Shown here: positions 20,394-54,336 of the stretch, piece after piece | Numbering within the stretch: position 1 is the stretch's first letter | How the letters are laid out: each line of letters starts with the position of its first letter | NCBI GenBank assembly: GCA_937877675.1 | Contig: CALEIS010000135.1 | Coordinates: forward strand, 173,557 to 237,556 | Reading direction: 5' to 3' | Source: an uncultured Clostridia bacterium | GTDB lineage: Bacteria; Bacillota; Clostridia; Oscillospirales; Acutalibacteraceae | Length of the DNA: 64,000 nucleotides | Notes under the pieces: generated by a model | The model's input: the letters and a program-made list of their open reading frames with translations, nothing else | The model's database searches: none | What the model was told of the DNA's origin: nothing | Position numbers and translations under genes: made by a program

Positions 20394-20422
20394 ATTATAC
20401 CTCAGTTCTAATCATTTGTCAA
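20394..20422 (-). promoter_or_regulatory. TTGACA-N17-TATAAT promoter cassette
   Basis: Plus strand shows attata (20394-99) and tgtcaa (20417-22). Leaderless spacing to ATG 20387. Confidence 0.7.
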
Positions 20423-20458
20423 GTGAAATTTATAAAACAAAAAACCACCAAGAAATCA

Positions 20459-20614
20459 TTATACTTCAAGGTGGGGTGTTATTTCAAAATCGTCTTGGCT
20501 AACCAATTCCCAAGTCGGAGGTAAAGAGTTCTGTATTTCAAACTCTGGAGTAGGAGGTAAGGAATTACCGAGTGCTACCGTTGCCGTAATTAGTGTAATT
20601 AGTATCGTTTTCAT
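20459..20614 (-). CDS. small secreted peptide with internal NSLPPT repeat
   Basis: MKTILITLITATVALG signal-like N-terminus, then two copies of NSLPPT.E. Confidence 0.35.
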   Translation of the reverse strand: MKTILITLITATVALGNSLPPTPEFEIQNSLPPTWELVSQDDFEITPHLEV

Positions 20615-20804
20615 AAATGTGTTTTGTTTAAGTTGCTTAAGAATAACCCTCATGAGCGTAGTTCCCATGAGGGGGGTTAGGGTACTTCCCTAACGGATTA
20701 CTAATAACTCCGCAATTTCACTTACGAAGTAGTGAAACTCCGCATTCATTGTTACTGTTCATGACCAGTAGAATGTTGAAGCCCAAGTATAACCTAGTTT
20801 TGTC

Positions 20805-20878
20805 AGTTATGGTGAGAATTGAACTCACGACTTTCCTACGCATCACCGTATTCAGTTCTACCACTGAACTACATAACT
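20805..20878 (-). tRNA. tRNA-like gene with non-canonical anticodon arm
   Basis: Good acceptor (agttatg/cataact), D arm (gttc/gaac) and T arm (gtgag-ttcaatt-ctcac). The anticodon region folds only as tacg-gtgatg-cgta, a 6- or 8-nt loop. Confidence 0.35.
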
Positions 20879-20891
20879 AACTGATTATAAG

Positions 20892-20975
20892 AGCCTTGGG
20901 TCAGATTTGAACTGACGTGCCCATTACGGGTCTCGATTACAAGTCGAGTGCAATCGACCACTATGCGACCAAGGC
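20892..20975 (-). tRNA. tRNA-Thr(UGU)-like with long (type II-like) variable arm
   Basis: Acceptor gccttgg/ccaaggc. Anticodon arm ctcga-cttgtaa-tcgag. About 15-nt variable arm acccgtaatgggcac. T arm gtcag-ttcaaat-ctgac. Confidence 0.55.
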
Positions 20976-20983
20976 TTTAAGGA

Positions 20984-21056
20984 TTGCAGAGGCAGGACTC
21001 GAACCTGCGGTCTTCTGGTTATGAGCCAGATGAGATAACCTCTTCTCTACCCTGCG
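20984..21056 (-). tRNA. initiator-type tRNA-fMet(CAU)
   Basis: cgcaggg...ctctgca gives the C1xA72 mismatch typical of bacterial initiators. Anticodon loop ctcataa. Confidence 0.75.
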
Positions 21057-21065
21057 ATTTATAAA

Positions 21066-21860
21066 TTATTCTATAAAAGTTTTAGCCTTCTTGATTGCTT
21101 CTTTTGGATTGTTATACACATCCTTCCAAATCAATCTCAATACTTCCCATCCATTTTCTTTAAGAAGAGCATCCTTACGCATGTCACGTTCTTTGTAATC
21201 TTGAAATCTTTGGTGTTGCTCACCATCAATCTCAATACATTTCTTCTTAGCAACCCATGCAAAGTCAAGCGAAAATCTTCCAAACGAATATTCTCTAATA
21301 TAGTCTTTGTCATCAAACTCATTCTCAATAACTGACATAAACCATTTTTCAGGGTAAGATGGTTCATTATTCCATCTACTCATGCCAATGTTATGTGCTC
21401 TGTTTTCAGAATGTGCTTTCTTCATTGACTCAGAGATTTTGTTTTTGGTATTATCTGTTAAAGTCTTACCATTACACCAAACTTCAATTTCTCCGTTAGC
21501 ATATCTTCGTTTTAGTTCTTCACTACCTTTACGAACACTTTCATCTGTCTCTTTAGTTAATCCTTTATTCCATGATGTTTTGCCACCATTTTTAGTAAAC
21601 TCAGGATGGATATTTGCTACATGTTCGTAAAGTTTTGCTCTACTGCCGAAGCATTCTCCACAATGAACACACTTCCATTTTGCTGCTCGTATGTTTGCTT
21701 CGTGAATACTGTTACGATTCACAATAGAGGGTAAATTACTCACACGATTCTTAACCTTATTGAGATTGGCTTTTGACCTACAAGACGCAGAACAAAATCT
21801 ACCAGACCCATAAGAGCCATCATGTTCTTTACCACATACTTCACATTGTTTCATGTTCAT
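21066..21860 (-). CDS. homing-endonuclease-like protein (Zn fingers + NUMOD3-like motifs + DUF559/Vsr-like nuclease)
   Basis: N-terminal CxxC...CxxxC and CxxC...H motifs. WNKGLTKET and WCNGKTLTD motifs. C-terminal FSLDFAW...IEIDGEQH...D...L...GWEVLR. Confidence 0.6.
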   Translation of the reverse strand: MNMKQCEVCGKEHDGSYGSGRFCSASCRSKANLNKVKNRVSNLPSIVNRNSIHEANIRAAKWKCVHCGECFGSRAKLYEHVANIHPEFTKNGGKTSWNKGLTKETDESVRKGSEELKRRYANGEIEVWCNGKTLTDNTKNKISESMKKAHSENRAHNIGMSRWNNEPSYPEKWFMSVIENEFDDKDYIREYSFGRFSLDFAWVAKKKCIEIDGEQHQRFQDYKERDMRKDALLKENGWEVLRLIWKDVYNNPKEAIKKAKTFIE

Positions 21861-21915
21861 ACTATTATTTAGTTGAATGGAAAATGCAGGGGACTAAAAC
21901 TTTTACTTTTTTAAG

Positions 21916-22245
21916 CTCGGGTGGTAGGGGTCGAACCTACGACCTAGTGATTACCCAAAAGAATGATAAATGTTTTATCTTTCTTCCGTGGACTTTCTCT
22001 TCATCATGCCATCAATGATGGTTTAGATGCACCGTGTAAAGTCTCTGCACATAAAAGAACGATTGCTCGTTCAATCTTGCTCAGGATTGGGATAAGATTT
22101 ATAGGCACTTATCCGTTCCCTGACTTAGCGATGTTTTCACCTCAAAGTTTCCAATGAAGGCTGCCTGTGCCTCGATTATTGCATAACACGCTTATAATCA
22201 ACATGTTCTGACAGTCACCCGCTCGTTCCACTGAGCTACACCCGA
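21916..22245 (-). tRNA. tRNA-Asn(GUU) (alternatively Thr-GGU) interrupted by a group I intron
   Basis: 5' exon tcgggtgtagctcagtggaacgagcgggtgactgt (22211-22245). 3' exon taatcactaggtcgtaggttcgacccctaccacccgag (21916-21953). Joined, they give a perfect cloverleaf with loop ctgttaa. Confidence 0.7.
21954..22210 (-). ncRNA. group I intron in tRNA anticodon loop (~257 nt, no ORF)
   Basis: The 5' exon ends in U and the intron ends in G. The internal ..gcagagacuuuacacggugc.. resembles the P7/J8-7 core of tRNA-resident IC3 introns, as recalled from memory. Confidence 0.6.
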
Positions 22246-22452
22246 ATTAGTTATTTCACTATCTTTTAATTTACTTTCATCTGCTGTCAAGAACTATTAT
22301 ACATCAGTTCTATTCATTAGATGGAATCTGTGTCAGATTCATTGTCGAGAGCCGTTTGTCCCTCTTTTATTATTTATACTTTTGAGGTCAGAAAGATTGA
22401 AGATTTTGTAAGTTTTTTATCTTTTTTCTTTCTTGTTGCTCGCAACACCATT

Positions 22453-22480
22453 ATTATATCATAGTTCTGTTCGTTGTCAA
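22453..22480 (-). promoter_or_regulatory. TTGACA-N16-TATAAT promoter cassette
   Basis: attata at 22453-58 and tgtcaa at 22475-80, with A/T tracts upstream. Confidence 0.65.
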
Positions 22481-22521
22481 GCATTTTTTCATAATTTTTT
22501 GAAAAAAGTTTGAAAAAGTTT

Positions 22522-22719
22522 TCAAGCTAGAAGTTTCAAGAAAAATGCTAAACCGTAACAGATGTAGATTTTATAATGAAGTGATTTCATTGACTCTTCT
22601 ATTTCATCAGGGGAAACACCAAACTCTTCAATAAGTCTGTCAGTGCTTTTCCACGTTCTCCATAGAAGGAATGTGAGCAATAGACCTATACCGATTAGTA
22701 TGTATGCTATTGTTATCAT
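22522..22719 (-). CDS. small membrane protein
   Basis: 65 aa with an N-terminal TM helix. It overlaps the stop of the HNH gene. Confidence 0.45.
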   Translation of the reverse strand: MITIAYILIGIGLLLTFLLWRTWKSTDRLIEEFGVSPDEIEESMKSLHYKIYICYGLAFFLKLLA

Positions 22720-23477
22720 TTTATGTTATATTTTTCTTTCCACTTTCTAACTGCATTATCAGATACTTTGAAATGTCTGCCCAATGCCAACATAGATTTG
22801 TGAATTTTCATCGCTTCTCGTAATTCTTCCTCACTTGGTATGTTTCTTGCGTTCCAATTATCATAACATTTTCTACAACAAAATCTTTTCTGTTTAGTAG
22901 AAGATAACTGTTTGTTACATACTTCACAAAAACGTGGTTCTGCTTCAACTGTTACTTTTTTCTCCCTTGGTTTTCTCACAGGTTTTTCAATAGTTGGTGT
23001 AATCTTCTTTACAACTTTTGCTTTTTCCTTATGAGAAATTGTATTTGCACCTCTGTAATGTTCTGTTAATGCGTGACAATTAGGACAAACAATCTGTAAG
23101 TTCTCAAATGAGTTATCCAAACGATTGCCGTTCTTATGATGTAGTTCAAGTGGTATCTCTACACCTTGCCACTCTTTCAAGCCACATACTTCACATACTT
23201 TTTCTTTAAGATTGAATTGGAAAATTCGTCTTTTGAGATGATAACTTGATAACATTTTTTCACCTCTAAAAACTTTTTCCAAATCTTCCCTAGTAAAAGA
23301 TTGACTTGAAACTTTTTTACATCCCCTTCCCCCTTGATTTGGTTGAAAACACCCATACTTTTTAGCAAGGCGTGCAAATGCGTTATACGAAATTCCTAAC
23401 GAACCTGCTGCACCTGTTATAGTTTTTCTTTCTTCAAGTGCTTCTCGTATTATGTTTTCTTCTATATCGTATGCCAT
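22716..23477 (-). CDS. HNH homing endonuclease with N-terminal HTH
   Basis: ELHHKNGNRLDNSFENLQIVCPNCHALT, plus a second C-terminal CxxC/HTH region. Confidence 0.8.
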   Translation of the reverse strand: MAYDIEENIIREALEERKTITGAAGSLGISYNAFARLAKKYGCFQPNQGGRGCKKVSSQSFTREDLEKVFRGEKMLSSYHLKRRIFQFNLKEKVCEVCGLKEWQGVEIPLELHHKNGNRLDNSFENLQIVCPNCHALTEHYRGANTISHKEKAKVVKKITPTIEKPVRKPREKKVTVEAEPRFCEVCNKQLSSTKQKRFCCRKCYDNWNARNIPSEEELREAMKIHKSMLALGRHFKVSDNAVRKWKEKYNIK

Positions 23478-23543
23478 ACACTTATTTAGTGCTAAACATT
23501 CCGCAAGGGTTCAGATTTATGTAAATTATTGATTTTTATTGAG

Positions 23544-23627
23544 TATCACGGATGGGACTTGAACCCATACGCTCCGAAGAGCAACGGTTTTTAAGACCGT
23601 TTTGGCTACCGATTACAACACCGTGAC
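23544..23627 (-). tRNA. tRNA-Leu(UAA)
   Basis: Type II. Anticodon arm acggt-cttaaaa-accgt. Variable arm tgctcttcggagcg. T arm atggg-ttcaagt-cccat. Confidence 0.8.
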
Positions 23628-23635
23628 ATTAGTTA

Positions 23636-23719
23636 TAGGGCAAGTGGGACTCGAACCCACACGAGATTTCTCTCATCGCATTTTGAGTGCGACATGACTA
23701 CCAATTCCATCATCACCCC
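23636..23719 (-). tRNA. tRNA-Leu(CAA)
   Basis: Type II. Anticodon arm tcgca-ctcaaaa-tgcga. D loop ggaattggtag. T arm gtggg-ttcgagt-cccac. Confidence 0.8.
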
Positions 23720-23738
23720 ATTTCGTGTTGACGAGACT

Positions 23739-23766
23739 ATTATATCATAGTTCTGTTCGTTGTCAA
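23739..23766 (-). promoter_or_regulatory. TTGACA-N16-TATAAT promoter cassette driving the two tRNA-Leu genes
   Basis: attata at 23739-44 and tgtcaa at 23761-66. Confidence 0.7.
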
Positions 23767-23783
23767 CACTTTTTTTGAAATAA

Positions 23784-23803
23784 GGGGTAGTTTTTTCTAC
23801 CCC
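23784..23803 (-). terminator. hairpin terminator after the small lipoprotein gene
   Basis: ggggtag-tttttt-ctacccc. T-rich 3' flank on the minus strand. Confidence 0.6.
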
Positions 23804-23832
23804 TTGTAATCGCACGCAACAGGTCTTTTTAT

Positions 23833-23955
23833 TTACTTCTTCACAGGAAGAATCTTGACAGGAGCATCCTTCTCCGTCTGAATCTTCTGCTGTTGCTGCT
23901 GCTGACAAGCCACAAGGGCAAGTCCCATCATCGTCATTACCATTACTGTCTTCAT
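23833..23955 (-). CDS. small lipoprotein (40 aa)
   Basis: MKTVMVMTMMGLALVAC-QQQQQK... has a signal peptide with lipobox LVAC. TATAAT lies 6 nt upstream of the ATG and a terminator lies downstream. It is below the track's length cut-off. Confidence 0.5.
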   Translation of the reverse strand: MKTVMVMTMMGLALVACQQQQQQKIQTEKDAPVKILPVKK

Positions 23956-23984
23956 AAGATTATTATACATCAGTTCTTTTTTCT

Positions 23985-24464
23985 TCACCACCAATTTGTG
24001 AAAATCAATTTATCTGTATTTTCCCAATAGATGTTTCCCAACTTTCTGACAATTTCTTTGACTTCGCTATAATCATGTTCATCAAATCGTTTCTTACCAC
24101 ATCTCCATCCATTCATAGGAAACAACTTTAATAATTGCTTCTGCACATCTTCGTCAACTTTCTCAAGAATAGTAGTGAGGTCATTATATATGCTAACTGG
24201 TTCGTTCCTTATTGCATCATCTACTAGGTCAATGGCAAGTTGGCAATCCTTGAGTAGTGCATCAATGTCTTCCTTGTCAACCAAGTAATACTCACAGTTA
24301 TCGACACTGATACCCCAATGTTTATCAAACCACTCCATCAGACAATAGTTCTTTCGGAAATAAGCACACTCACTGTCCGTAGAAGTAGTGAAGAGTGTTT
24401 CCTTTGTCTTAGGATTGTGAACTTTCTTCTGAGTTACGTAATAAAAATTTGTATCAAGCCCCAT
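23985..24464 (-). CDS. hypothetical protein
   Basis: The start was chosen at MGLDTNFYY. Paralogous N-terminus to 25092..25577 (MGLDMYMY..). Confidence 0.5.
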   Translation of the reverse strand: MGLDTNFYYVTQKKVHNPKTKETLFTTSTDSECAYFRKNYCLMEWFDKHWGISVDNCEYYLVDKEDIDALLKDCQLAIDLVDDAIRNEPVSIYNDLTTILEKVDEDVQKQLLKLFPMNGWRCGKKRFDEHDYSEVKEIVRKLGNIYWENTDKLIFTNWW

Positions 24465-24726
24465 AACTATCTTTCTTCTTAGAGTCAATGTAAGTATAAG
24501 CGAAATCAATACCAATACATGCACCAAGGATAGCACAAATAATTAAATCAAACATTGTAATTAGTTCCTTATCATGGACGATGTAGATAACTATTGACAT
24601 AGTAGTGAGCAACTTGATAACAAACCACTTCCAAGGATTATTCTCACGCCAATACTCACAGAACATAATCATACCTAATTCCACGGTCAGTAGAATTCCA
24701 ATAATAATTAGCAGAATAGTATTCAT
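24454..24726 (-). CDS. membrane protein (3 TM)
   Basis: Hydrophobic 90-aa ORF starting at MNTILLIIIG. Confidence 0.5.
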   Translation of the reverse strand: MNTILLIIIGILLTVELGMIMFCEYWRENNPWKWFVIKLLTTMSIVIYIVHDKELITMFDLIICAILGACIGIDFAYTYIDSKKKDSYGA

Positions 24727-25076
24727 TTCTCTTCCTCCTTCTTCCAATTCTCAATCACCTCATCAAAGTGCTTGGAAAACGCTTTCTTTATATATGAGTG
24801 AAGCGTCCACTTGCCAATAAGGGTATTGAAGCAGACAACGAACTTATTATTCTTATATATAGAAATTTTGCCACAGAGAGAGCATTCGTGAAGAGCAATA
24901 CCCAAGGTCTGACCATCTTCCGTCATAAACTCATAGAGTTCGTAATGATGAAGGGTTTTACCATAACCAAAGGTCTGATAATTCACTGCCTTGAACTTAG
25001 TCTCTTCAAGGAACTTTTTGATTGTATTAATGTTCATACGAGATAAAAACGGTGAGTAACCAAATGAATAAAACAA
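24723..25076 (-). CDS. hypothetical protein
   Basis: 117-aa ORF. The start is uncertain. Confidence 0.5.
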   Translation of the reverse strand: MFYSFGYSPFLSRMNINTIKKFLEETKFKAVNYQTFGYGKTLHHYELYEFMTEDGQTLGIALHECSLCGKISIYKNNKFVVCFNTLIGKWTLHSYIKKAFSKHFDEVIENWKKEEEK

Positions 25077-25091
25077 ATAGGATACATAAAA

Positions 25092-25577
25092 TTAGTAAGA
25101 AGCAAGGTAAGTAATTAGTTCATCATCCTTCATTTTCTTGAGGAGATTCATGATACCATTGATAAGGTCTGCCATCATTGTTCCATCTTCGTCACCAAAG
25201 ATGTTCACAGCATTGTGACAATTTCCATAACGAAGTTCCTTATCAAAAACCTTGAGGAATACACGTCCTGCTACATAATACTCACGATGAAGCACATCAT
25301 TAGGAAGCTCTTTCTCCTCTGCATTCGTCATGTCATCATAAGCCACCATTGCAGCCTTATGAATGTTCATGACACTTTCCAAGAGATATGCAACCATATA
25401 AATTACATCATTCTTGGTGAAAATGTACTTACCCTCAACCTCAGTTCTCTTACCAAACCTGACAAAGAGGTCATGAAGGTCACGCTGACCACGCCAATAC
25501 AAGCACCGATTGTCATCACCTTCAAAGTTGATGTCATTATGATGCTTACTGTTATACATGTACATGTCTAATCCCAT
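25092..25577 (-). CDS. hypothetical protein
   Basis: 161-aa ORF. Confidence 0.55.
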   Translation of the reverse strand: MGLDMYMYNSKHHNDINFEGDDNRCLYWRGQRDLHDLFVRFGKRTEVEGKYIFTKNDVIYMVAYLLESVMNIHKAAMVAYDDMTNAEEKELPNDVLHREYYVAGRVFLKVFDKELRYGNCHNAVNIFGDEDGTMMADLINGIMNLLKKMKDDELITYLASY

Positions 25578-25582
25578 AATCT

Positions 25583-25780
25583 TTAAGCGTAATAAGTTGT
25601 ATTATCAATGGCTGCATGCTCAAAGCATTCATTCACATACTTTGTAGCGTCATCAATAAGAGTTTCATCTTCTTCAACGGCAAGGATAATCTTGGCAACC
25701 ACATCGAGAGCATCAAACTCATTCTTGGTCTTACCAATCATATCCACGAACTTCTGTAACTTTTCGTATCCTTCGCACAT
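25583..25780 (-). CDS. hypothetical small protein
   Basis: The start was moved to the first ATG downstream of the promoter (MCEGYEKLQKF). Confidence 0.45.
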   Translation of the reverse strand: MCEGYEKLQKFVDMIGKTKNEFDALDVVAKIILAVEEDETLIDDATKYVNECFEHAAIDNTTYYA

Positions 25781-25801
25781 AAGCTTTATCTTTCCACGAG
25801 A

Positions 25802-25830
25802 ATTATACACGAAATTCTAATTTAGGTCAA
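25802..25830 (-). promoter_or_regulatory. TTGACC-N17-TATAAT promoter cassette
   Basis: attata at 25802-07 and ggtcaa at 25825-30. Confidence 0.6.
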
Positions 25831-25836
25831 GACTTT

Positions 25837-26349
25837 TTATACAATTCCGTGAAAATTCTTGTGATTATCGTAATAATTCTGCTTATAGAAATTGAAAAAA
25901 CCTACGCTTTCATGAGGAAAATAATCTCCTCCACTAAATTGAGATATACCCTCATCACATGTATCCACAAAATGTTCCATAGAAACGAGTGAAGTCAACA
26001 AAGGCATACACTCTTTAATAATTGCTTCGTGGTATTTTTTATCTTTTCTAGGACGTGGACGCTCAATCGCCATGTATAATACCAATTCTTCAGCATCATC
26101 CCAACTTTCAGCATCTTCACTAATTATACCAAGACCATCTTCATCATCAATCCATTTATGAAGAGTTGCAGCGATACGAATATTTACAGGAAGATTACCA
26201 TTATGATAATCAGCACACATTTTATCATTGATTGCATCACAAATCATGATTATCTGTTCAATTGTAAACTTATGATTGTCATCCACCTCAAATTCATCAA
26301 TGTACTCCTCAATCGTTTCAGCAATGTTATTTTCAATAAGGTCTATCAT
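25837..26349 (-). CDS. hypothetical acidic protein
   Basis: Start at MIDLIENN, 9 nt downstream of a -10-like box. Confidence 0.5.
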   Translation of the reverse strand: MIDLIENNIAETIEEYIDEFEVDDNHKFTIEQIIMICDAINDKMCADYHNGNLPVNIRIAATLHKWIDDEDGLGIISEDAESWDDAEELVLYMAIERPRPRKDKKYHEAIIKECMPLLTSLVSMEHFVDTCDEGISQFSGGDYFPHESVGFFNFYKQNYYDNHKNFHGIV

Positions 26350-26358
26350 AACACGGAC

Positions 26359-26387
26359 AAAATACACTAATCTGTAATTCAAGTCAA
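26359..26387 (-). promoter_or_regulatory. TTGACT-N17-TATTTT promoter cassette (degenerate copy)
   Basis: Same cassette context (caagtcaagactttttt) as the other copies. Confidence 0.45.
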
Positions 26388-27754: not shown

Positions 27755-27758
27755 AATC

Positions 27759-28016: not shown

Positions 28017-28044
28017 GTTTGTGTTCCTTTCTTTGTCCACGGAC

Positions 28045-28073
28045 ATTATACACGAATTTATAATCCAAGTCAA
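28045..28073 (-). promoter_or_regulatory. TTGACT-N17-TATAAT promoter cassette
   Basis: attata at 28045-50 and agtcaa at 28068-73. Confidence 0.65.
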
Positions 28074-28176
28074 GACTTTTTTGATAAAAATTCAAATAAA
28101 AATCCCTCATAGACGAAGAATTATCTATGAGGGATACTGATAGACTGTCGCTGGCACAGGCATCTATTAGATGAAA

Positions 28177-28700: not shown

Positions 28701-28729
28701 TTTATATTATAACTATGTTCTACAAAAAG

Positions 28730-28801
28730 AGCGGACGATGGGATTTGAACCCACGACATTCACCTTGGCAAGGTGACGCTCTACCGCTGAGCTACGTCCG
28801 C
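28730..28801 (-). tRNA. tRNA-Gly(GCC)
   Basis: gcggacg/cgtccgc. Anticodon arm tcacc-ttgccaa-ggtga. Confidence 0.85.
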
Positions 28802-28938: not shown

Positions 28939-28967
28939 ATTATACACGAATTTTCCATAATTGTCAA
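28939..28967 (-). promoter_or_regulatory. TTGACA-N17-TATAAT promoter cassette
   Basis: attata at 28939-44 and tgtcaa at 28962-67. A ~135-nt structured leader precedes tRNA-Gly. Confidence 0.7.
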
Positions 28968-32141: not shown

Positions 32142-32170
32142 ATTATACATCAGTTCTTTTCTTTTGTCAA
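32142..32170 (-). promoter_or_regulatory. TTGACA-N17-TATAAT promoter cassette
   Basis: attata at 32142-47 and tgtcaa at 32165-70. Confidence 0.7.
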
Positions 32171-32209
32171 GCACTTTTTGAAAGTTTTTTGAACTTTTTT
32201 CTTGAAAAA

Positions 32210-32281
32210 CACTCCATGCGGGATTTGAACCCACCTTCACGATTTTAGAGACCGTTGTCCTAACCACTAGACGAATGGAGC
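32210..32281 (-). tRNA. amber suppressor tRNA (anticodon CUA)
   Basis: gctccat-tc-gtct-agtggtta-ggac-a-acggt-CTCTAAA-atcgt-gaag-gtggg-ttcaaat-cccgc-atggagt-g. Canonical 7-nt loop with U33 and CUA at positions 34-36 (plus-strand tag at 32246-48). Confidence 0.8.
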
Positions 32282-32288
32282 ATGAAAG

Positions 32289-33128: not shown

Positions 33129-33157
33129 ATTATATCATAGTTCTTTTTACTTGGCAA
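33129..33157 (-). promoter_or_regulatory. TTGCCA-N17-TATAAT promoter cassette
   Basis: attata at 33129-34 and tggcaa at 33152-57. Confidence 0.65.
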
Positions 33158-33899: not shown

Positions 33900-33952
33900 A
33901 TCTTTATTTAGTTCACTTTACAAATAAAGGAGAGATTTTATTACTGATTTAG

Positions 33953-36626: not shown

Positions 36627-36655
36627 ATTATATCAGAGTTCTGAAACTTTGTCAA
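36627..36655 (-). promoter_or_regulatory. TTGACA-N17-TATAAT promoter cassette
   Basis: attata at 36627-32 and tgtcaa at 36650-55. Confidence 0.7.
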
Positions 36656-36779: not shown

Positions 36780-36808
36780 ATTATACACATGTTCTCCCTC
36801 ACTGTCAA
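36780..36808 (-). promoter_or_regulatory. TTGACA-N17-TATAAT promoter cassette
   Basis: attata at 36780-85 and tgtcaa at 36803-08. It is in tandem with the previous copy. Confidence 0.7.
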
Positions 36809-37076
36809 GCAAATTTTTGAAAAAAGTTGAAAAAAGTTTTCAGAAAAATTCTTGTTCATTGATTTAGAAAGAAAAAGAGCAGAACTTTTTTTAGTCCTGC
36901 CCTTTCACCATTTATGAGATTACATGCAAAGCTTATAGATGTCAAGGGCAGAGTACACACCATTTACCACAGAGCATGTAAAATGGTCTGAGTGAAATGT
37001 GCTTTTCTATGCGAATACTTGTCATCGTCTTTTTCTTATTTATACACTTGAAATTAAAATTGTAGAAATTTTTACA

Positions 37077-37757: not shown

Positions 37758-37780
37758 TACTGTTTTATTTAATAGAAAAA

Positions 37781-37802
37781 GGAGACTTCCGAAGAAGTCT
37801 CC
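37781..37802 (-). terminator. rho-independent terminator after the capsid gene
   Basis: ggagacttc-cgaa-gaagtctcc, with a T-run on the minus strand. Confidence 0.7.
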
Positions 37803-37833
37803 CTTGAAGTTAGATTTGTTTTATCCTATTAGA

Positions 37834-39981: not shown

Positions 39982-40024
39982 AATTGTATAAAAAGTATTT
40001 AGTTATTTGTATTTATTTTAGGGT

Positions 40025-41982: not shown

Positions 41983-42052
41983 GTTATAATTTATTTATGA
42001 AATTTTGAAAAATATAGTTGACAAATGAACTCTAATGTGCTAGTCTTTATTC

Positions 42053-44269: not shown

Positions 44270-44740
44270 TTAGTCAACGATGCTAATAAAGTTATTACGC
44301 TTTTTAACAAGCCACTGTTTTTCTTTCATGTCGTATACAGCACATGACTTAGAATTAAGTGTGTTTCCTGAGTATGCCCATACCCAAATTCTTCTACCAC
44401 CTGTTGCAGCACTTGAAATTTCAAGTCTATATCTTCTGCCATCTGGAGTATTTCTGTATTCACCGTAACTATATTCACGACCGTTAGACTTACACAATGA
44501 TAAGAGGTCATTTATTGAAAATTGTTCTCTTTGAAGTGGAGCTTTACGAACAGGCTTACTTGTTACTTCTGCATCTCTCATCTACAAACCATAATTCTCA
44601 AGCAAATACTTGGCAGCTTCTTTCAATACATTTCTCATTGATAACTCAGACTTGGACTTTACTACCAAGTTCTTCTGAGGAAGTACACTCTCATTGAGTC
44701 TTCCACTTACTTTCTTAATCTTTACATTATACTCAAACAT
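44270..44740 (-). CDS. MFEYNV-family protein (paralogue 1) with TAG at the N-domain/C-domain junction
   Basis: MFEYNVKIKKVSGRLNESVLPQKNLVVKSK...ENYGL*MRDAEV... TAG at 44582-84. Both track ORFs are in the same frame. Confidence 0.6.
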
Positions 44741-44770
44741 ACGTATTCTTTTATTTATAAATAATTTCAC

Positions 44771-46493: not shown

Positions 46494-46682
46494 TTATCCC
46501 TCAATGTACATCACAAAATCAAACATGTCCTTAACTTTATTCTCATGTAGAGCACTCATGAAGTTTCTACGAACATAAGCCTCTGCATTATTGAAATCAC
46601 GAAGCAGTCTTCCGTAAAAACCCTGAGACTGAGCAAGTGAAACCAACCAACTACGAACTTCTTTCTGAGTGAGCTTCTTCAT
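46494..46682 (-). CDS. hypothetical small protein
   Basis: Start at MKKLTQKEV, 9 nt from TATAAT. Confidence 0.45.
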   Translation of the reverse strand: MKKLTQKEVRSWLVSLAQSQGFYGRLLRDFNNAEAYVRRNFMSALHENKVKDMFDFVMYIEG

Positions 46683-46691
46683 GACACGGAC

Positions 46692-46720
46692 ATTATACAA
46701 AAATTCTAATCTTTTGTCAA
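46692..46720 (-). promoter_or_regulatory. TTGACA-N17-TATAAT promoter cassette
   Basis: attata at 46692-97 and tgtcaa at 46715-20. Confidence 0.7.
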
Positions 46721-47729: not shown

Positions 47730-47809
47730 CCTATAACTGAGGGAGTGTGAGAATGTTAGAGTTCTCCACTCCCTCTTTTGCATAACCAATAGAAAGGAAA
47801 TAAGGAAAT

Positions 47810-48283: not shown

Positions 48284-48305
48284 TAACTTAACCATAAATG
48301 TATTG

Positions 48306-48336
48306 GGGCTGACCAATAAAGGTCAGCCCTTTTTTA
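48306..48336 (+). terminator. rho-independent terminator
   Basis: gggctgacc-aataaa-ggtcagccc followed by tttttt. Confidence 0.7.
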
Positions 48337-49062: not shown

Positions 49063-50024
49063 ACTTTTCTCTTTATTAGAATTCTTGTATAAAGTGCTTT
49101 TCTATCGAGAACAGGGCCTCTTGTTCTCAAAACTTTGCCACTTTTTTCTTCGTATTCTGCATTTTCACCACAGATAAATCCGTTCACATAATCACTTTGA
49201 GAAAACCTATTGAAAATTCCTACAATTTCAAATAAATCCTCTCTCTGCCTATCAATGTAAGTAACAGGAACTCCCATCAGACCATCATAATCAACAGGGA
49301 TGTCTTTACTGTTTTTCACATGAATAGCATCCAAGTTATCATACTTAGGATAATCTTTTTCATTATAATGACATACAGGTTCAATTCCTTTATTATCTTG
49401 TGAGATGTCAAAGTTAGTATACCACCTTACACCATCCACTCTGATGTATTTTACACCTTTTTCATCTATTCTACTTGCCTTTTCACTTAAAGGATAATCA
49501 TCAGGAACTCTAAACTCCCTGTCACCACTATGTATTGAGACACCAAGTCTCACCTCATTTCTCTTGAAATATGGAAACACTTCCTTTGTCACCACTCCTT
49601 TATTCGTTCCAAGAGTAATGAACTTCTTACCGTGTTCCATAATCAACTTCAAATGTTGTCTGAATAAAGAGAATGGAGGATTAGTAACAACTATATCACA
49701 TTGCTTCAAAAACTCAATACATTCTTCACTTCTGAAATCTCCATTACCTTTCATTACAGTTAGTTGCATTTCATCTTTATTGATGTCCTCTAATGTACCA
49801 TGAGGATAAGAAGTACAGATAAGACGCTTCAACCCTAACTTATCAAAATTATCAAAGAAGTATTTTCTAAAATTAGAATAGTGGTCGTCACAGTTGCAAT
49901 ATACAGTTTTATCCTTGAAGAAATGAGTATAATACTTCATTTCTTTTTCAATATCTTCATACGAAGTATAAAATTCATCTGCCTTTCTTCTTTTGGCATC
50001 ATTTAATGTATTTCTAGTTCCCAT
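49059..50024 (-). CDS. adenine-specific DNA methyltransferase (EcoRI-methylase-like)
   Basis: ADEFYTSYEDIEKE...VYCNCDD...VVTNPPFSLF. Confidence 0.7.
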   Translation of the reverse strand: MGTRNTLNDAKRRKADEFYTSYEDIEKEMKYYTHFFKDKTVYCNCDDHYSNFRKYFFDNFDKLGLKRLICTSYPHGTLEDINKDEMQLTVMKGNGDFRSEECIEFLKQCDIVVTNPPFSLFRQHLKLIMEHGKKFITLGTNKGVVTKEVFPYFKRNEVRLGVSIHSGDREFRVPDDYPLSEKASRIDEKGVKYIRVDGVRWYTNFDISQDNKGIEPVCHYNEKDYPKYDNLDAIHVKNSKDIPVDYDGLMGVPVTYIDRQREDLFEIVGIFNRFSQSDYVNGFICGENAEYEEKSGKVLRTRGPVLDRKALYTRILIKRKV

Positions 50025-50881
50025 TATTCGTATCTATCTAACTCCAAGAATTTACTAATACTCAATGCAAACACTTCACAACCATTACGCTCAAAGTGTG
50101 CATCTTCGTGATAGTGACCGTTGAACCAATACTTAGGATTGAACTTGGCAATGATTTTATCAATGTTCTCACGTTCTTCCTCAATAGTTTCTTTCAAACC
50201 CTTGGGGAATTTCTTGTTAGGTTGCCAGAAGTCACCCTCTTTCTCACGGATTGCCCAGTTCTCTACAAAGTGTGACTTCATACATTCAGGAGGTGTCGGC
50301 CCACTATGAGCAAATACTCCGTAAAATTCAGATGCTTCCATCTTATCATACAAATCATACTTCATGTATTCGTCATCCCAATAAGTGAAGCCTAATACAC
50401 GATGTCTACCACTTCTGTCAATGGAGATAGAACCAGGAACTACGAGATAACGCTTACCATTATGACTAATAACAGTATCGCCATCTCTTAAACAATGGAT
50501 ATTATCAAACCAATCCCACAACTTACTATCTTCTGCGTACTTGGAAGGGTCATCATGATTACCTCTGAATACCCATACATCATTGTTGTTACCCTTTGCC
50601 CACTTATCCAATTCCTTCAACCACTTTACATCACCATAAGGCTTATAATCACTATCTTTGTAATCATACCGATAAAATCCTACACCAATGTCTCCAAGGA
50701 TGATGATGTCTGTATTCTCGAAACCACCACACTTATCAACACTATCAAAAAATCCTTTGTGCTCCTCTTCATCTCTAAGGCAACCATGAATATCACCACA
50801 GAGTAAGCACATGTCATGTTTAAGTTCGTATTCCATAATAAAAGAAAAAGGCGTAAAGTTTCCCTTACGCCCATTATACAT
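50024..50881 (-). CDS. calcineurin-like metallophosphoesterase
   Basis: CGDIHGC, LGDIGVG, RGNHDDP and GHYH. Confidence 0.7.
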   Translation of the reverse strand: MYNGRKGNFTPFSFIMEYELKHDMCLLCGDIHGCLRDEEEHKGFFDSVDKCGGFENTDIIILGDIGVGFYRYDYKDSDYKPYGDVKWLKELDKWAKGNNNDVWVFRGNHDDPSKYAEDSKLWDWFDNIHCLRDGDTVISHNGKRYLVVPGSISIDRSGRHRVLGFTYWDDEYMKYDLYDKMEASEFYGVFAHSGPTPPECMKSHFVENWAIREKEGDFWQPNKKFPKGLKETIEEERENIDKIIAKFNPKYWFNGHYHEDAHFERNGCEVFALSISKFLELDRYE

Positions 50882-50897
50882 TAGTTCTTATAAATTG

Positions 50898-51494
50898 TCA
50901 ACCGTAAGTGTAATAAATGTTACCATTTTTTGCTTGAGTGAAATAAATCTGTACATCGTTAGCATTCATCTCACCGTTTGATTCTTGGACAGTATCAATT
51001 ACGAAATTCTTCCATTCATCTTTACCTCTCCAATTATCATTAGCCATCTCAAGCACTTGTTCAAAATCGTAGTCAGTTACATCTTCACCACAAACTTCTG
51101 CCCAACCATCGAATACCTCTTTTTCGAGTGTCTCCAATTGAACATACTTATTAGCAAAGTCAATGTCTGCTTCTTCGATATAGCCACCTCTCTTAATCCA
51201 AGAAGGGCCGTGAGCATCAGCAATCTCTCTTTCCTTACCATAAATGTCAGAAGGATTGTTATGACCATTGATTACGATTTGTTCGCCATCTACCATCTCA
51301 TAGACAATAGGACTGTCAATTGCAGCTTGCTCTAATACGAGATTGTACTTTTCCTTGAGGTATTCACTCACCTTATCGAATGCCTCTTGCTCAGAAAGAA
51401 CTTTTTTAGATTTTACTACAAATGATTCTTTAGGAGTTGCACTTTCCGTCAATACTCCACTAACCTTTAGAATTGTAATATTATACTCAAACAT
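50898..51494 (-). CDS. MFEYNV-family protein (paralogue 3)
   Basis: MFEYNITILKVSGVLTESATPKESFVVKSK...KEKYNLVLE, plus a unique C-terminus. Confidence 0.6.
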   Translation of the reverse strand: MFEYNITILKVSGVLTESATPKESFVVKSKKVLSEQEAFDKVSEYLKEKYNLVLEQAAIDSPIVYEMVDGEQIVINGHNNPSDIYGKEREIADAHGPSWIKRGGYIEEADIDFANKYVQLETLEKEVFDGWAEVCGEDVTDYDFEQVLEMANDNWRGKDEWKNFVIDTVQESNGEMNANDVQIYFTQAKNGNIYYTYG

Positions 51495-51499
51495 AACCA

Positions 51500-52117
51500 T
51501 TAATAATAACTTGTTCCACTTTGAGGTTTACCATCCCACAATGTTGCATACATGTAAGATTTGATTTTGCAACCAGGTCTTCCACTCCAATCAGAAATCT
51601 TTCTTCTAAATGGCTGAGCACCTTCTACAGGTTCAGGAGTAGGAACACATGTGTAATGTCCCCAATGCTTACCATCTTCCTTTCTCTGTGACTTTACCTT
51701 TATCAATGTAACAGAAGTATCTGTCATTTTCAACACTTTGAAGAAATCAATATTGGTCTGCTCATAACCCCAATCAGCTACAAAGTATTGTGGCTCAGCA
51801 GTTTGTGTGGGCTATTCCTTTACCTTATTCTTTGAACCAGCAGGTCTACCTCTTCTCTTAGCAGTAGGCTTATTGAAAGAAGCTCCACCTTGAGTATTCC
51901 CTGTTGTTACATTACTTGGCTCTTCATTGTCAAATCCACTTACTGAGAATTCTTCTACAACCAAACCATACTTCTGCTCATAGAAATTTGCCACCTTGTT
52001 ATACAAAGTGTTCTCATCAAGTTGTGACTTGCTCTTTACTACAAGATTTTTATTAGGGAGTACACTTTCCGTCAATACTCCACTAACTTTTCTAATTTCA
52101 ACTTTATACTCGAACAT
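51500..52117 (-). CDS. MFEYNV-family protein (paralogue 4) with TAG before the C-terminal domain
   Basis: MFEYKVEIRKVSGVLTESVLPNKNLVVKSK...SKNKVKE*PTQTAEPQYF... TAG at 51812-14. Track ORFs 51812.. and 51500.. share a frame with no other stop between them. Confidence 0.6.
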
Positions 52118-52128
52118 GTTGAAATTAT

Positions 52129-53160
52129 TTATTCAACTGTACTGAGTAATCTGTTGTGAAATCTTAGATAATCTCCTACTGTAATGCCATTATCAAAACA
52201 TAAAGTATTGAGCATGTTTGTGATTCTCTCTCCCTTGGTGTATCTCACCCCCTTTGGAATCTCTTTATCTGTCAAGAAATCCTCACACTTCTTCACCCAT
52301 CTGTTAATCTCATCGTAACCAATAGGCTGCTCACTCTTCTTATAGATACCATATAACTCCGCAAGTTCAGTATACTTCTCTAAGTATTTCTCTTTCAAAG
52401 CCTTCCATCTCTTGTTGATAATGGCATAAGGAATACCTGCAACATAGAATACATAACCCTCTACTTCACAACCCTTTACATCAATCTTTCCATTGATAAG
52501 AGACTTGGAACTCTCAGCCAATTTGTCAAGTAGATTAGGAATATCTGACAATTCACAATTCTTGGGAATGTCAACTACTGTATCAATGTCCTCAGTAGGA
52601 ATCATCTCATCAATGAGGTAACACTTAAAACCTTTGTCAGCAGTAATTGTAAAGTACGTCTGAAGTTCTTTCAAAACGAAGTCAACATCCTCATCTTCAA
52701 CATTACCCTTGAACTTACGAATAACAACAGCACCCTTTTTGCCCATACGAACCTTATGATACTTGGTAGCTACTATGGTAACAGTATTGTCAGCATCATA
52801 GTATTCTTGAGGAGCATAAATCAACTCACCCTCAAACTCAAAAGCACCATACTTACGCTTCATCTTCAAAAGTTCCATGAGCATGTGCGTCTGTAAGTGT
52901 TCTACAAGAGCTTGGTGACTAGGTTCTCTGCTAATGTTATCATACTCACCTCTTGCAGTTTTGATAAGGATTCTGTTATCATCTCCTACCTTGACTGCAA
53001 AACATTGACCATCAATCTTTTCAGTAACTCCACCTCCAATACCAAGGGTAAGAAGGTGAAGTTCCTTACGGTTATCAATAAGTCGTGGTTTGAATTGAGT
53101 TCTCAAACGCTTACGACTTACCTTATTCATCTTTATTGTAGAAATTTTATTCATTTGCAA
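52129..53160 (-). CDS. ATP-dependent RNA/DNA ligase-like nucleotidyltransferase
   Basis: Motif I KxDG (GVTEKIDGQCF). Confidence 0.5.
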   Translation of the reverse strand: MQMNKISTIKMNKVSRKRLRTQFKPRLIDNRKELHLLTLGIGGGVTEKIDGQCFAVKVGDDNRILIKTARGEYDNISREPSHQALVEHLQTHMLMELLKMKRKYGAFEFEGELIYAPQEYYDADNTVTIVATKYHKVRMGKKGAVVIRKFKGNVEDEDVDFVLKELQTYFTITADKGFKCYLIDEMIPTEDIDTVVDIPKNCELSDIPNLLDKLAESSKSLINGKIDVKGCEVEGYVFYVAGIPYAIINKRWKALKEKYLEKYTELAELYGIYKKSEQPIGYDEINRWVKKCEDFLTDKEIPKGVRYTKGERITNMLNTLCFDNGITVGDYLRFHNRLLSTVE

Positions 53161-54008
53161 TCATCTTCTAATTGTTCATTCCACCACTCTTTGATTTCAG
53201 AAGGATAATCAAAACCTTCACGTTCCATTTCATCAATGTATTCCTTAACAATGAAGTCAATCCTATCGAAGAGGGGATGCTCAGGGTCACTAATCAAAGA
53301 CCATACATCCATTACATTTCTGAAACTGTGTCTTACATCAATTACATCAAGAAGAATGTACAAGATTTCTTCAGGGTCATTTGTAACGAGTTTCTTTTCA
53401 ATAGTCTTGACAGTCTTATTGATACGTCCATTCTTACCCTCATAAGAACGAGTCATTCGGAACAACCCATGTCTCTGGTCAAAGTACAGACGGTCAAAGT
53501 AAAGAACTGTGCCATCCTCATTTGTATGAACAACAGTATCCTTGTACTTGGAGATAGCACGAATAAGACCATTACGTGTAGCAGATTTCCACGGAGTATC
53601 ACCATCTGTCATCATTCCCCATTCTGCCATACCTACATTTTCCACAGGCATCAAATCAACCTGTACATAACGGTCAGTACGCTTGCCATCCTTATCAAAG
53701 ATAGGGAAAGGTATGCTGTGAATGTCTAAACCTTTAGAATAATTGTATTCAGGAAGTGTTACATACAAATCGTTCAAACGCTTGGTAATCCCTTCCTTAT
53801 CCAATCCTAAACGTCTCATCGCTACATTTACATCAAATGCAATGTCAATGTCTCCACAACTTTCACGAACTAAGAATGAACCACAAGGTACATACTCTCC
53901 AATTACCAAACCAAGGGCTTGATAGATATGTTCTCTCAGAACTTCATAAGTAGTTTCCATTTCCTCCTTATGAATTCGTCCTACTGTCTTTAGTGCTTTG
54001 CCTCCCAT
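53151..54008 (-). CDS. Pol-beta-superfamily nucleotidyltransferase
   Basis: GSF...CGDIDIAFD signature. Confidence 0.5.
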   Translation of the reverse strand: MGGKALKTVGRIHKEEMETTYEVLREHIYQALGLVIGEYVPCGSFLVRESCGDIDIAFDVNVAMRRLGLDKEGITKRLNDLYVTLPEYNYSKGLDIHSIPFPIFDKDGKRTDRYVQVDLMPVENVGMAEWGMMTDGDTPWKSATRNGLIRAISKYKDTVVHTNEDGTVLYFDRLYFDQRHGLFRMTRSYEGKNGRINKTVKTIEKKLVTNDPEEILYILLDVIDVRHSFRNVMDVWSLISDPEHPLFDRIDFIVKEYIDEMEREGFDYPSEIKEWWNEQLEDDCK

Positions 54009-54298
54009 AAAATTGTATCGTAATCTGATTCGTTAATTTCGTTAGTCTCCATGTGTCGCCATAATCCTACCACAGTGAGTCTGTGTTCGTCAAGCTCAAA
54101 CTTACGAGGATGTCCTGCAAATTCTCCCAAAGTCTGTACTATCTTTTTGAATTTCTGTTTACCAAATATCTTATACATCTGTCCTTGTGTCCAATCGACA
54201 GTTTCAGTCTTGTAAAGCTCTTGGTAACGGAAGTAATCTCCTTCCAACACAATTACCCATTCGTTAGGTATTCCGTATAATACTCCTGTAAATTTCAT
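53990..54298 (-). CDS. hypothetical protein
   Basis: 102-aa ORF. TATAAT lies 9 nt upstream of the ATG. Confidence 0.5.
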   Translation of the reverse strand: MKFTGVLYGIPNEWVIVLEGDYFRYQELYKTETVDWTQGQMYKIFGKQKFKKIVQTLGEFAGHPRKFELDEHRLTVVGLWRHMETNEINESDYDTILWEAKH

Positions 54299-54307
54299 GG
54301 CACAGTT

Positions 54308-54336
54308 ATTATACTACAACTCCTAATCTCTGTCAA
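54308..54336 (-). promoter_or_regulatory. TTGACA-N17-TATAAT promoter cassette
   Basis: attata at 54308-13 and tgtcaa at 54331-36. Confidence 0.7.

Follow-up and report, generated by a model that had tools for sequence, protein, structure and literature searches.

The question raised by the stretch of DNA analysed here is how genes are expressed when their promoters end only a few nucleotides (nt) before the start codon and their messages carry almost no Shine-Dalgarno (SD) sequences. The stretch, hereafter the window, comprises 64,000 nt (bases 173557-237556) of a contig from an uncultured Clostridia assembly (GCA_937877675.1, CALEIS010000135.1; here C135), which belongs to a 179-contig metagenome-assembled genome (MAG) of 2.08 Mb. 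An earlier note on this DNA, made from the letters alone, had described repeated promoter cassettes between positions 20394 and 54336 (window numbering applies wherever no contig is named). In the current analysis, these cassettes are followed across the whole contig and its relatives, and the reading that we consider probable is that they belong to a three-class programme of promoters set against ATG codons in an SD-free T4-like jumbo phage, with early cassettes that would be read by the host sigma-A/sigma-70 polymerase.

C135 is the complete genome of a T4-like jumbo phage that is uncultured and reads TAG as a sense codon. It measures 254,361 bp at 36% G+C, and a 55-bp overlap between its ends indicates that the assembly closes as a circle. 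Encoded on it are a gp23-like major capsid protein, an anaerobic ribonucleotide reductase, several DNA methylases and 29 tRNA genes, one of which has the anticodon CTA of an amber suppressor. A six-frame comparison of open reading frame (ORF) lengths was discarded as a test of the recoding, because removing any stop codon inflates ORFs. Identity of the capsid protein to its counterparts in cultured T4-like phages (cyanophages, pelagiphages) is only ~30%, and more than 100 relatives with 71-95% capsid identity lie on metagenomic contigs of ~250-370 kb. A DNA-level search of an annotated phage collection for close relatives returned tRNA-sized matches only, and IMG/VR searched with capsid peptide patterns gave no match. 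The relative used most often below is a contig of 375,692 bp with a 141-bp end overlap (C113, the 375-kb relative), which carries the same three motifs with stronger peaks.

The distance between promoter and start codon provides the central evidence. For every TATAAT on C135, we counted the following ATGs that open an ORF of at least 50 codons, against a background of 3.4 per position. Twenty genes lie at 6 nt (Poisson p = 8e-10), seven at 7 nt and 12 at 9 nt (p = 2e-4 at 9 nt), and in the 375-kb relative 48 genes lie at 6 nt (p = 1e-32). The peak is confined to ATG, as GTG and TTG starts show none at 6, 7 or 9 nt, and the TATAAT-to-ATG spacing in the other 1.82 Mb of the MAG is without a peak. 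Each distance given in the earlier note was confirmed: the ATGs at 12652, 20387 and 23955 stand 6 nt from the -10 box, whereas the four at 7792, 26349, 46682 and 54298 stand 9 nt from it. Its further step, that transcripts of both groups would be leaderless, is supported for the 6-nt genes; those at 9 nt probably have a short leader instead, as explained below.

A search of the window for TTGACA-N15-18-TATAAT gives 11 exact sites, with spacers of 16 or 17 nt, where 0.13 would be expected and 100 shuffles yielded at most two. Ten of these lie within 20394-54336 and the remaining one at 15150-15178; the same interval holds three one-mismatch copies (TTGACC, TTGACT and TTGCCA) and a degenerate TTGACT...TATTTT copy. 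The thirteen near-identical cassettes of the earlier note were therefore about right in number, and its statements that they lie on the minus strand (11 of 11 exact window sites) and head tRNA operons (tRNA-Leu at 23766, tRNA-Gly at 28967, tRNA-Glu at 32170 and tRNA-Val through the CTA suppressor at 33157) hold as made. The wording "near-identical" applies to the hexamers and the A-tract region, which the copies share, but not to the cassettes overall, which form families of ~70 nt at 61-92% identity with spacers in sub-families. A repeat search recovers the cassette among its top families (D1, D9 and D11), D1 consisting of eight copies of 69 nt at 61-78% identity and D11 including a pair at 92%. 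The whole of C135 has 43 perfect and 84 near-perfect cassettes, the strand of which tracks gene direction (plus at ~36-163 kb, minus elsewhere).

The anatomy of the cassette was derived from a logo of the 37 perfect N17 sites of C135. A-tracts recur at -44 to -40, -55 to -51 and -66 to -62, in an 11-bp phase, and single positions are strongly conserved within and around the spacer (C-36 in 84%, A-29 in 76%, T-17 in 81% and G-13 in 89% of sites, the last preceded by T in 59%). The conserved TG at -14/-13 abuts TATAAT and is one base nearer to it than in the canonical extended -10 element (TGn); among the 12 best sites in the 20-40 kb portion of the window, only four have the canonical register, and an extended -10 reading of the conserved TG was dropped because its register is off by one. 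The discriminator is pyrimidine-rich, with a pyrimidine at -1 in 100% of sites and a purine as the seventh base after TATAAT in 97%, a step that, by sequence preference and promoter geometry, points to where transcription probably starts. Several cassettes (36808, 28073, 54336 and 23766) have a terminator-like hairpin immediately upstream, and at 57457 and 50901 hairpins lie over or after the -10 box; a stem-loop or terminator does not accompany every copy. A sigma-70/sigma-A promoter type is consistent with every sequence feature tested, and the UP region, -35 box, 17-bp spacer, -10 box and -1/+1 step together support the cassettes as putative promoters of this type.

Setting the likely start site against the start codons distinguishes three kinds of early leader. 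A 6-nt spacing puts the position-7 purine on the A of ATG, and a leaderless mRNA is thus predicted. The 9-nt class has the consensus yyCyyTGTy-ATG, in which the position-7 purine is the G three bases before ATG; a 3-nt leader (GUC/GUU-AUG) rather than none is probably present in these genes. In a third early group the leaders would measure 19-37 nt and are A/C-rich, some with a weak AGAAAGGA and most without anything SD-like. An SD core precedes only one of the 28 genes of the 5-8-nt class and none of the 12 genes of the 9-11-nt class. Between C135 and the 375-kb relative, orthologue pairs keep spacings of 6, 7 or 9 nt despite diverged upstream sequence, and the one pair that switches from 9 to 6 nt moves between permitted classes. 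The DNA polymerase promoter, (GAAC/GAAA)-N5-TATA(A/G)T-N6-ATG, recurs in C135 (ATG at C135 77629), the 375-kb relative (96% polymerase identity) and four further relatives (71-83%), so that N6-ATG is kept in 6 of 6 phages at 71-96% identity; in one of them, L135, a terminator hairpin and T-run directly precede this promoter. A remoter clade (45-48% polymerase identity) is without the box, yet it is also SD-free. Taken together, the spacing peaks, the predicted N-termini (see below), the conservation among orthologues, this terminator-adjacent promoter and the absence of SD support the prediction of leaderless messages. The public polymerase call in L135 (401-440, ENA k141_2070277) begins at a GTG that lies within the terminator hairpin and 13 codons before the conserved TATAAT-N6-ATG. 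Applying the leaderless rule would put this misannotated start right.

Of the alternatives, the one that survives best holds that the cassettes are mobile or recombinogenic modules like the promoter-early stem-loops (PeSLs) of T4-type phages, and that their closeness to ATG is an unselected by-product of insertion. We regard it as possible but doubtful. It accounts for repeat families of ~40-70 nt at 61-92% identity, for an identical spacer-plus-leader at distant loci (C135 42408 and 169065), for an orthologous small gene in the relative L094 with a different leader module, and for the small ORFs of unknown function behind most cassettes, a feature that they share with PeSLs (PMC2839356). Mobility is compatible with promoter function, however, and selection on the spacing is indicated by peaks at 6 and 9 nt that are specific to ATG, by conservation of the distance where flanks have diverged and by its occurrence at essential replication genes; moreover, the late motif described below is unrelated to the cassettes and shows the same abutting design.

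Leader modules do seem to be exchanged together with the cassettes. A module of the form gtggtcacac(c/g)aa...aaggaaagga follows five of them (C135 42408, 76623, 82345 and 169065, and 36627-36655 in the window); it is also present in the IMG/VR relative fragment L083, and in L094 the orthologue of the gene behind the 46720 cassette has it in place of the 9-nt arrangement. L083 was the one true relative returned by a scan of IMG/VR for the promoter pattern; the same scan returned unrelated Firmicutes-type phages that have similar promoter arrays with SDs. In one of these, an unrelated 120-kb phage contig (L086, IMGVR_UViG_3300021387_000025), 12 perfect UP-TTGACA-N17-TATAAT promoters stand within 6.7 kb, each ahead of a leader of 20-30 nt in which an AAAGGA/AAGGAG SD is clear, in contrast to C135.

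The near absence of SD sequences, reported earlier for the window, extends to the entire phage by SD core and by duplex energy, both of which are at background. An SD core (GGAG, GAGG or AGGA at -18 to -5) precedes 51% of bacterial starts in the MAG (control 5.7%) and 10.3% of phage starts (control 9.6%), and duplexes with the 16S tail of at least -6 kcal/mol strength precede 67% of bacterial starts (control 10%) and 8% of phage starts (control 14%). We then grouped 285 heuristic gene calls on C135 (longest ORFs of at least 60 codons, with TAG as sense): in 40, ATG follows a sigma-A-type -10 box by 5-11 nt, 63 (22% of genes) have a late box 4-12 nt before ATG, 80 start no more than 15 nt from an upstream stop codon and 14 have an SD-like core, while 87 fall in no class, among them some spurious ORFs and leadered early genes. 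Only ~11-14 genes with an SD are found on C135. Abutting promoters, coupling to an upstream stop codon and short leaders thus point to a phage that is translated almost wholly without SD pairing. A search of the phage contig for ribosomal protein S21, an S1 domain or IF3 found no match.

This scarcity invites a second alternative, which we consider unlikely: that the true host belongs to a lineage without SD pairing (e.g., Bacteroidota, or an SD-poor phylum with canonical sigma-70 promoters), the layout mirroring that host instead of being a strategy of the phage, and the Clostridia bin being an artefact. The total lack of an SD signal in the phage would fit, as would the placement of the 375-kb relative in a MAG titled Paludibacteraceae, and no CRISPR (clustered regularly interspaced short palindromic repeats) or sequence tie to the Clostridia contigs was found besides one 26-nt match. 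That match, the single exact one of its length between phage and bacterium (C135:26021-26046 and C99:5083-5108), is an intrinsic terminator hairpin (AAAAAAGGAGGGTTTTAACCCTCC) and was rejected as a CRISPR spacer on that account; apart from it, phage and MAG DNA share one notable stretch, of 68 nt at 87% identity. Searches of the MAG for CRISPR arrays, for spacer-like sequences matching the phage and for a 16S rRNA gene found none; by rpoB, the rest of the MAG is a Clostridia/Oscillospirales-like bacterium. The promoter evidence runs the other way. The 1.82 Mb of Clostridia contigs contain 65 perfect consensus promoters against roughly 4 expected by chance (~17-fold), whereas the Paludibacteraceae MAG has 72 sites of the form TTGACA-N16-18-TATAAT on its phage contig, 11 on contig C45 and 4 in the remaining ~3 Mb, which is chance level. 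Phage genes show no enrichment of the Bacteroidetes -7 motif, TAnnTTTG, in their upstream regions, with 8 occurrences there and 11 inside genes; a search of the phage for sigma-70-family genes found none besides the gp55-like one that could replace a non-canonical host sigma; and the AGAAAGGA present in a few early leaders pairs with the 3' tail of the 16S rRNA. Consensus promoters, no second sigma and no Bacteroidetes motif together indicate a host with a canonical housekeeping sigma, which fits Bacillota and not Bacteroidota; a Bacteroidota host was rejected on these promoter grounds. The binning of such jumbo phages looks unreliable as evidence of their hosts. Contig C45, whose 11 perfect sites lie within ~90 kb, may be another phage.

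A second promoter class emerged from the copies that had been described as having only the -10 half of the cassette. Such copies exist, at 7802-7816, 12659-12673, 22296-22310, 23962-23976 and 57443-57457, but all five have the form GAAC-N5-TATAAT and constitute a separate class that was missed by the earlier reader. GAAC-N5-TATAAT occurs 43 times on C135 (27 times without any -35 box), 73 times on the 375-kb relative and six times in the 1.82 Mb of bacterial contigs. The GAAC tetramer occupies positions -21 to -18 and often co-occurs with a perfect -35 box; about half of the sites without a -35 box lie 6-7 nt before ATG. Genes of this class include those for the DNA polymerase, SbcC- and SbcD-like nucleases, two helicases, an RNA ligase and NAMPT, a replication gene set of the kind that T4 expresses from early and middle promoters.

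The third class is defined by TAAATAA. C135 has 87 such sites, and at 61 of them the ATG of an ORF follows after 4-10 nt; the bacterium has 757, of which 9 are so placed. The seventh position is A in 86-90%, the region upstream is flat, and the bases between box and ATG are 76% A+T. The motif precedes the capsid gene and many large ORFs of virion size; it also follows tRNA genes, and in divergent intergenic regions of 30-35 nt it stands back to back (TTATTTA...TAAATAA), for which reasons we rejected the idea that it merely reflects the stop codon of an upstream gene. A start ~6 nt past the box would give late leaders of 0-6 nt. The phage encodes a gp55-like late sigma factor (C135:86004-86525, outside the window; phrog_234 "late sigma transcription factor", E = 8e-24), and codons 31 and 38 of its gene are in-frame TAG, the former kept in the orthologue of the 375-kb relative (C113:361383-361901). 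Its synthesis would therefore depend on the suppressor tRNA; together with the cassette-driven suppressor operon (33157 to 32209), these codons suggest a late switch gated by the genetic code. A check on timing comes from TAG density, as recoded stops in gut phages concentrate in late genes (bioRxiv 10.1101/2021.08.26.457843, a study that did not treat promoters or ribosome sites). Consistent with this published pattern, C135 has 9.3 TAG per 1000 codons in genes behind TAAATA and 2.0 in genes abutted by a sigma-A-type -10 box (Fisher p = 0.04), the 375-kb relative has 4.2 and 0.66 (p = 1e-4), and the density in TAAATA genes is 4.7-6.4 times that in sigma-A-proximal genes.

TAAATAA could instead act in translation, as an A/U-rich enhancer that recruits ribosomes without SD pairing from 4-10 nt ahead of the start codon, with the late promoters elsewhere. 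AT-rich non-SD start motifs are known in SD-poor genomes (the non-canonical ribosome-binding-site classes of Prodigal and GeneMarkS-2), and this precedent, the broad spacing of the motif (4-12 nt, unlike the sharp 6-nt sigma-A peak) and its occurrence not only at unit starts but also within runs of genes on one strand speak for such a role. The motif is nonetheless specific to one class of genes (22%, TAG-rich and structural) and absent from early leaders; its sequence agrees with the core of the T4 late box TATAAATA, likewise with no conserved upstream element and with AT-rich downstream sequence (PMC2988020); the phage encodes the gp55-like sigma; and in divergent pairs 30-35 nt apart each gene has its own box, which leaves no room for other promoters. 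We accordingly judge a ribosome-recruiting TAAATAA improbable and favour a late promoter.

Finally, that the promoters are genuine while translation starts at downstream codons and no message is leaderless is very improbable: start codons were assigned by ORF logic only and several of the 6-9-nt genes are short ORFs of unknown function, but PHROG profile alignments begin at residues 1-20 in the DNA polymerase, SbcD, RNA ligase and NAMPT and thereby support the predicted starts, the spacing peaks are ATG-only and at 6, 7 and 9 nt only, both ATG and spacing are kept in orthologues, and no SD is available at downstream codons.

The individual copies in the window illustrate these arrangements; the early ones are on the minus strand except where stated. 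The outlying cassette at 15150-15178 (TTGACA-N17-TATAAT) leads through a 27-nt, A/C-rich, SD-free leader into an ORF of 114 amino acids (aa). At 20394-20422, a full cassette with GAAC in its spacer stands 6 nt from the ATG at 20387, which opens a 194-aa ORF with a predicted leaderless message, and the arrangement is kept in the 375-kb relative. Two full cassettes have N16 spacers: one at 22453-22480, with a canonical TGa before the -10 box, has no downstream ORF and heads RNA genes, and the other at 23739-23766 has a terminator-like hairpin just upstream and tRNA-Leu(caa) ~12 nt past its predicted start; the former and the copy at 23738-23775 share 92% identity over 38 nt (D11). Family D9 contributes a one-mismatch cassette (TTGACC) at 25802-25830, with a 21-nt leader and a 65-aa ORF, and the degenerate TTGACT-N17-TATTTT at 26359-26387, 9 nt from the ATG at 26349 of a 170-aa ORF. 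The one-mismatch cassette TTGACT at 28045-28073 has a terminator (28102-28135) just upstream and precedes an 85-aa ORF through a 28-nt leader with a weak AAAGGAA.

Further along, full cassettes head tRNA-Gly (28729-28801; cassette at 28939-28967) and tRNA-Glu with tRNA-Tyr (32142-32170, with GAAC, the reference copy of D1). The one-mismatch cassette TTGCCA at 33129-33157, which has GAAC and TGa-TATAAT, heads the operon of tRNA-Val, Pro, Met and the amber suppressor; the suppressor gene itself (anticodon CTA, 32209-32282, minus strand) is the last of the four and is labelled tRNA-Pyl by ARAGORN. A tandem pair of full cassettes with GAAC lies at 36627-36655 and 36780-36808, the first at the upstream end of a large tRNA array with a leader that begins gtggtcacac, and the second with a terminator (36873-36906) just upstream. 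The full cassette at 46692-46720 is 9 nt from the ATG at 46682 of a 62-aa ORF, and its orthologue in the relative L093 keeps the 9-nt spacing despite a base change. A full cassette with GAAC at 50873-50901 reaches its 270-aa ORF through a 36-nt leader with a hairpin and T-run. This leader (50837-50872) folds into a GC hairpin with a T-run behind it (gggcgtaagggaaactttacgcc-ttttt) and may be an attenuator between promoter and gene; the orthologous leader in L093 (~1315-1352) has a different sequence and the same type of hairpin. At 54308-54336, a full cassette directly follows a terminator hairpin and stands 9 nt from the ATG at 54298 of a 102-aa ORF, an arrangement kept in the 375-kb relative. 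On the plus strand, TTGACA-N17-TAGAAT at 57989-58017 lies 6 nt before the ATG at 58024 of a 153-aa ORF.

The following GAAC-N5-TATAAT sites of the window are likewise on the minus strand. Those at 7802-7816 and 12659-12673 are without a -35 box and precede an 88-aa ORF (ATG 7792, 9 nt) and a 197-aa ORF (ATG 12652, 6 nt), respectively; the spacing at the latter is kept in the relative, where the upstream sequence has diverged. The site at 22296-22310 has neither a -35 box nor an ORF. Spacings of 6 nt recur at 23962-23976 (ATG 23955, 40-aa ORF) and 28706-28720 (ATG 28699, 58-aa ORF; arrangement kept in the relative), and at 57443-57457 the -10 box lies inside a hairpin and a 36-nt SD-free leader extends to nrdD (ATG 57406). 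A variant box, GAAC-N5-TAAAAT, together with an aaggaaagaa leader precedes each of three tandem paralogous genes at 9504-11141 (repeat family D2: 193-nt copies, 68-78% identity), which correspond to adjacent methyltransferase-like ORFs at 8913-10951.

Among the late genes of the window, that for the gp23-like major capsid protein has no SD and starts at an ATG (39981) that lies 14 nt past a late-type TAAATA at 39996-40001. Further minus-strand boxes, of the form TAAATA(A), lie at 37766-37771 (8 nt before ATG 37757, with a terminator at 37778-37805 just upstream), 21866-21871 (5 nt before ATG 21860, 264-aa ORF, no gene directly upstream), 23483-23488 (5 nt before ATG 23477, 253-aa ORF, downstream of tRNA genes), 33905-33910 (5 nt before ATG 33899, 158-aa ORF), 41992-41997 (9 nt before ATG 41982, 223-aa ORF in the prohead-protease neighbourhood) and 52126-52131 (8 nt before ATG 52117). 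A back-to-back TTATTTA/TAAATAA pair at 44752-44763 serves ATGs at 44740 (minus) and 44771 (plus) across a divergent region of ~30 nt.

Several components of this layout have precedents. PeSLs are the repeated early-promoter cassettes of the T4-type phages RB49 and phi1 (Arbiol et al. 2010, PMC2839356), and the likeness extends from the T4-type phage and the ~50 repeated host sigma-70 promoters with an AT-rich upstream region to the tie of copies, on C135 several but not all, to a terminator or stem-loop, the position mostly before small genes of unknown function and the presence of some copies at plastic loci, among them nrdD and the DNA polymerase gene. PeSLs, however, end in an SD before the start codon and have their stem-loop between or over the hexamers, whereas the cassettes of C135 are without SD, many abut ATG and the stem-loop is usually a separate upstream terminator; the putative host of C135 is Gram-positive, unlike those of the PeSL phages. 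For the Thermus phages phiYS40 and Lalka27a, a preprint states that most transcripts are predicted to begin at the initiator codon and describes time-specific promoter classes that, as on C135, are all set against the start codon (bioRxiv 10.64898/2026.04.20.719267). The Thermus hosts (Deinococcus-Thermus) are themselves rich in leaderless mRNAs, whereas the bacterium co-binned with C135 is SD-rich; the Thermus late box is TAGGGT, as opposed to the TAAATAA and GAAC-N5-TATAAT of C135; and the Thermus programme is experimental, whereas we infer the one on C135.

T4 itself offers two further comparisons. Its late promoters consist of a lone 8-bp TATA box at -10, without a -35 box and with an AT-rich downstream segment (PMC2988020, PMC7892883). 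The T4 box, used by gp55 with gp33 and gp45, has the TAAATA core in common with the TAAATAA of C135, which is without the leading TA, and the two systems agree in the missing -35 box, the AT-rich downstream sequence, the position before structural genes and the encoded gp55 homologue. T4 late mRNAs have SD-bearing leaders; the late box of C135, at 4-12 nt from ATG, would give leaders of 0-6 nt without SD, and the in-frame TAG codons of the gp55-like gene are another difference from T4. T4 middle promoters (MotA box at -30, AsiA) resemble the GAAC class in that a host-type -10 box is kept, an upstream element is phage-specific and replication genes are served, but they differ in that GAAC lies at -21 to -18, there is no match to MotA and a perfect -35 box frequently co-occurs; the GAAC class thus appears analogous to the T4 middle family rather than a member of it. 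Among cellular genomes, those of the leaderless group C of GeneMarkS-2 (Actinobacteria, Deinococcus-Thermus) have a -10 box 6-8 nt before the start codon. C135 is similar in having TATAAT 6-7 nt upstream of AUG, in using AUG only and in being without SD, and it is unlike group C in being a phage genome, in the full -35 box and UP region at many sites, in its second, 9-nt class and in its difference from the co-binned bacterium. Repeated early cassettes (PeSLs) and mostly leaderless phage programmes (Thermus) are therefore known already, and C135 is a variant of both; our literature searches found no description of such a promoter-against-ATG layout for gut jumbo phages.

The programme that we favour would proceed in three tiers. 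The full cassettes would act as early promoters for the host housekeeping sigma-A/sigma-70 polymerase, with the phased A-tracts as UP element, and would drive small early genes and tRNA operons, including that of the suppressor tRNA. A second, phage-specific tier of GAAC-N5-TATAAT promoters, mostly without a -35 box, would express genes of replication and nucleotide metabolism, and a late tier would use TAAATAA, presumably through the gp55-like sigma, for the TAG-rich late and structural genes. With 6-7 nt between -10 box and ATG, the A of AUG would be the first transcribed base of a truly leaderless mRNA; with 9 nt, the message would begin GUC/GUU-AUG; late boxes would give leaders of 0-6 nt; and the remaining genes would start no more than 15 nt from an upstream stop codon, by coupling, or use short A/C- or A/U-rich leaders. 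Within this scheme, we infer the temporal classes, the factor that would read GAAC and the mode of ribosome recruitment.

Several points weigh against the programme as proposed. All 5' ends are read from promoter geometry, the gene calls are heuristic and ~30% of genes fall outside every class. The broad spacing of TAAATAA is as much like that of a ribosome site as that of a promoter; a search of the phage with the Pfam profile of the gp45 clamp C-domain (gp45-slide_C) gave no match, although divergence may hide a clamp, and a search with the MotA profile (MotCF) gave none either. The host is uncertain, since the link to Clostridia consists of binning and promoter type, and the 375-kb relative sits in the MAG titled Paludibacteraceae. 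Bacillota are regarded as strongly SD-dependent, and an SD-free phage in such a cell would have leadered and internal genes for which no translation mechanism is known.

A bolder version of the programme is also conceivable. The whole clade might have abandoned SD initiation within an SD-dependent Clostridia host and begin its mRNAs at or beside the AUG from the three promoter classes, a design that would let it block host SD translation, e.g., via the 16S 3' end or initiation factors, while phage messages stay translatable, and the cascade might be code-gated, running from host-type cassettes to the suppressor tRNA, from there to the TAG-containing gp55-like sigma and finally to the TAAATAA late genes. 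We offer this combination as speculation and think it quite unlikely to be correct in full.

If the starts are as predicted, a widespread clade of gut jumbo phages expresses essential genes, such as those for DNA polymerase, a recombination nuclease, RNA ligase and the capsid protein, from leaderless or nearly leaderless mRNAs. These phages would use essentially no ribosome-binding sites, unlike the SD-rich bacterium with which C135 was binned. In practical terms, the layout provides a rule for annotating start codons in these phages and a source of compact, strong promoter parts, and the three motif classes allow genes to be assigned as early, middle or late from sequence alone. The promoter programme would also be tied to stop-codon recoding, as the suppressor tRNA is cassette-driven and the late sigma needs read-through of TAG. 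The finding raises the question of how an SD-free genome is translated in a Bacillota cell, and whether SD-independence may be part of the takeover of the host.

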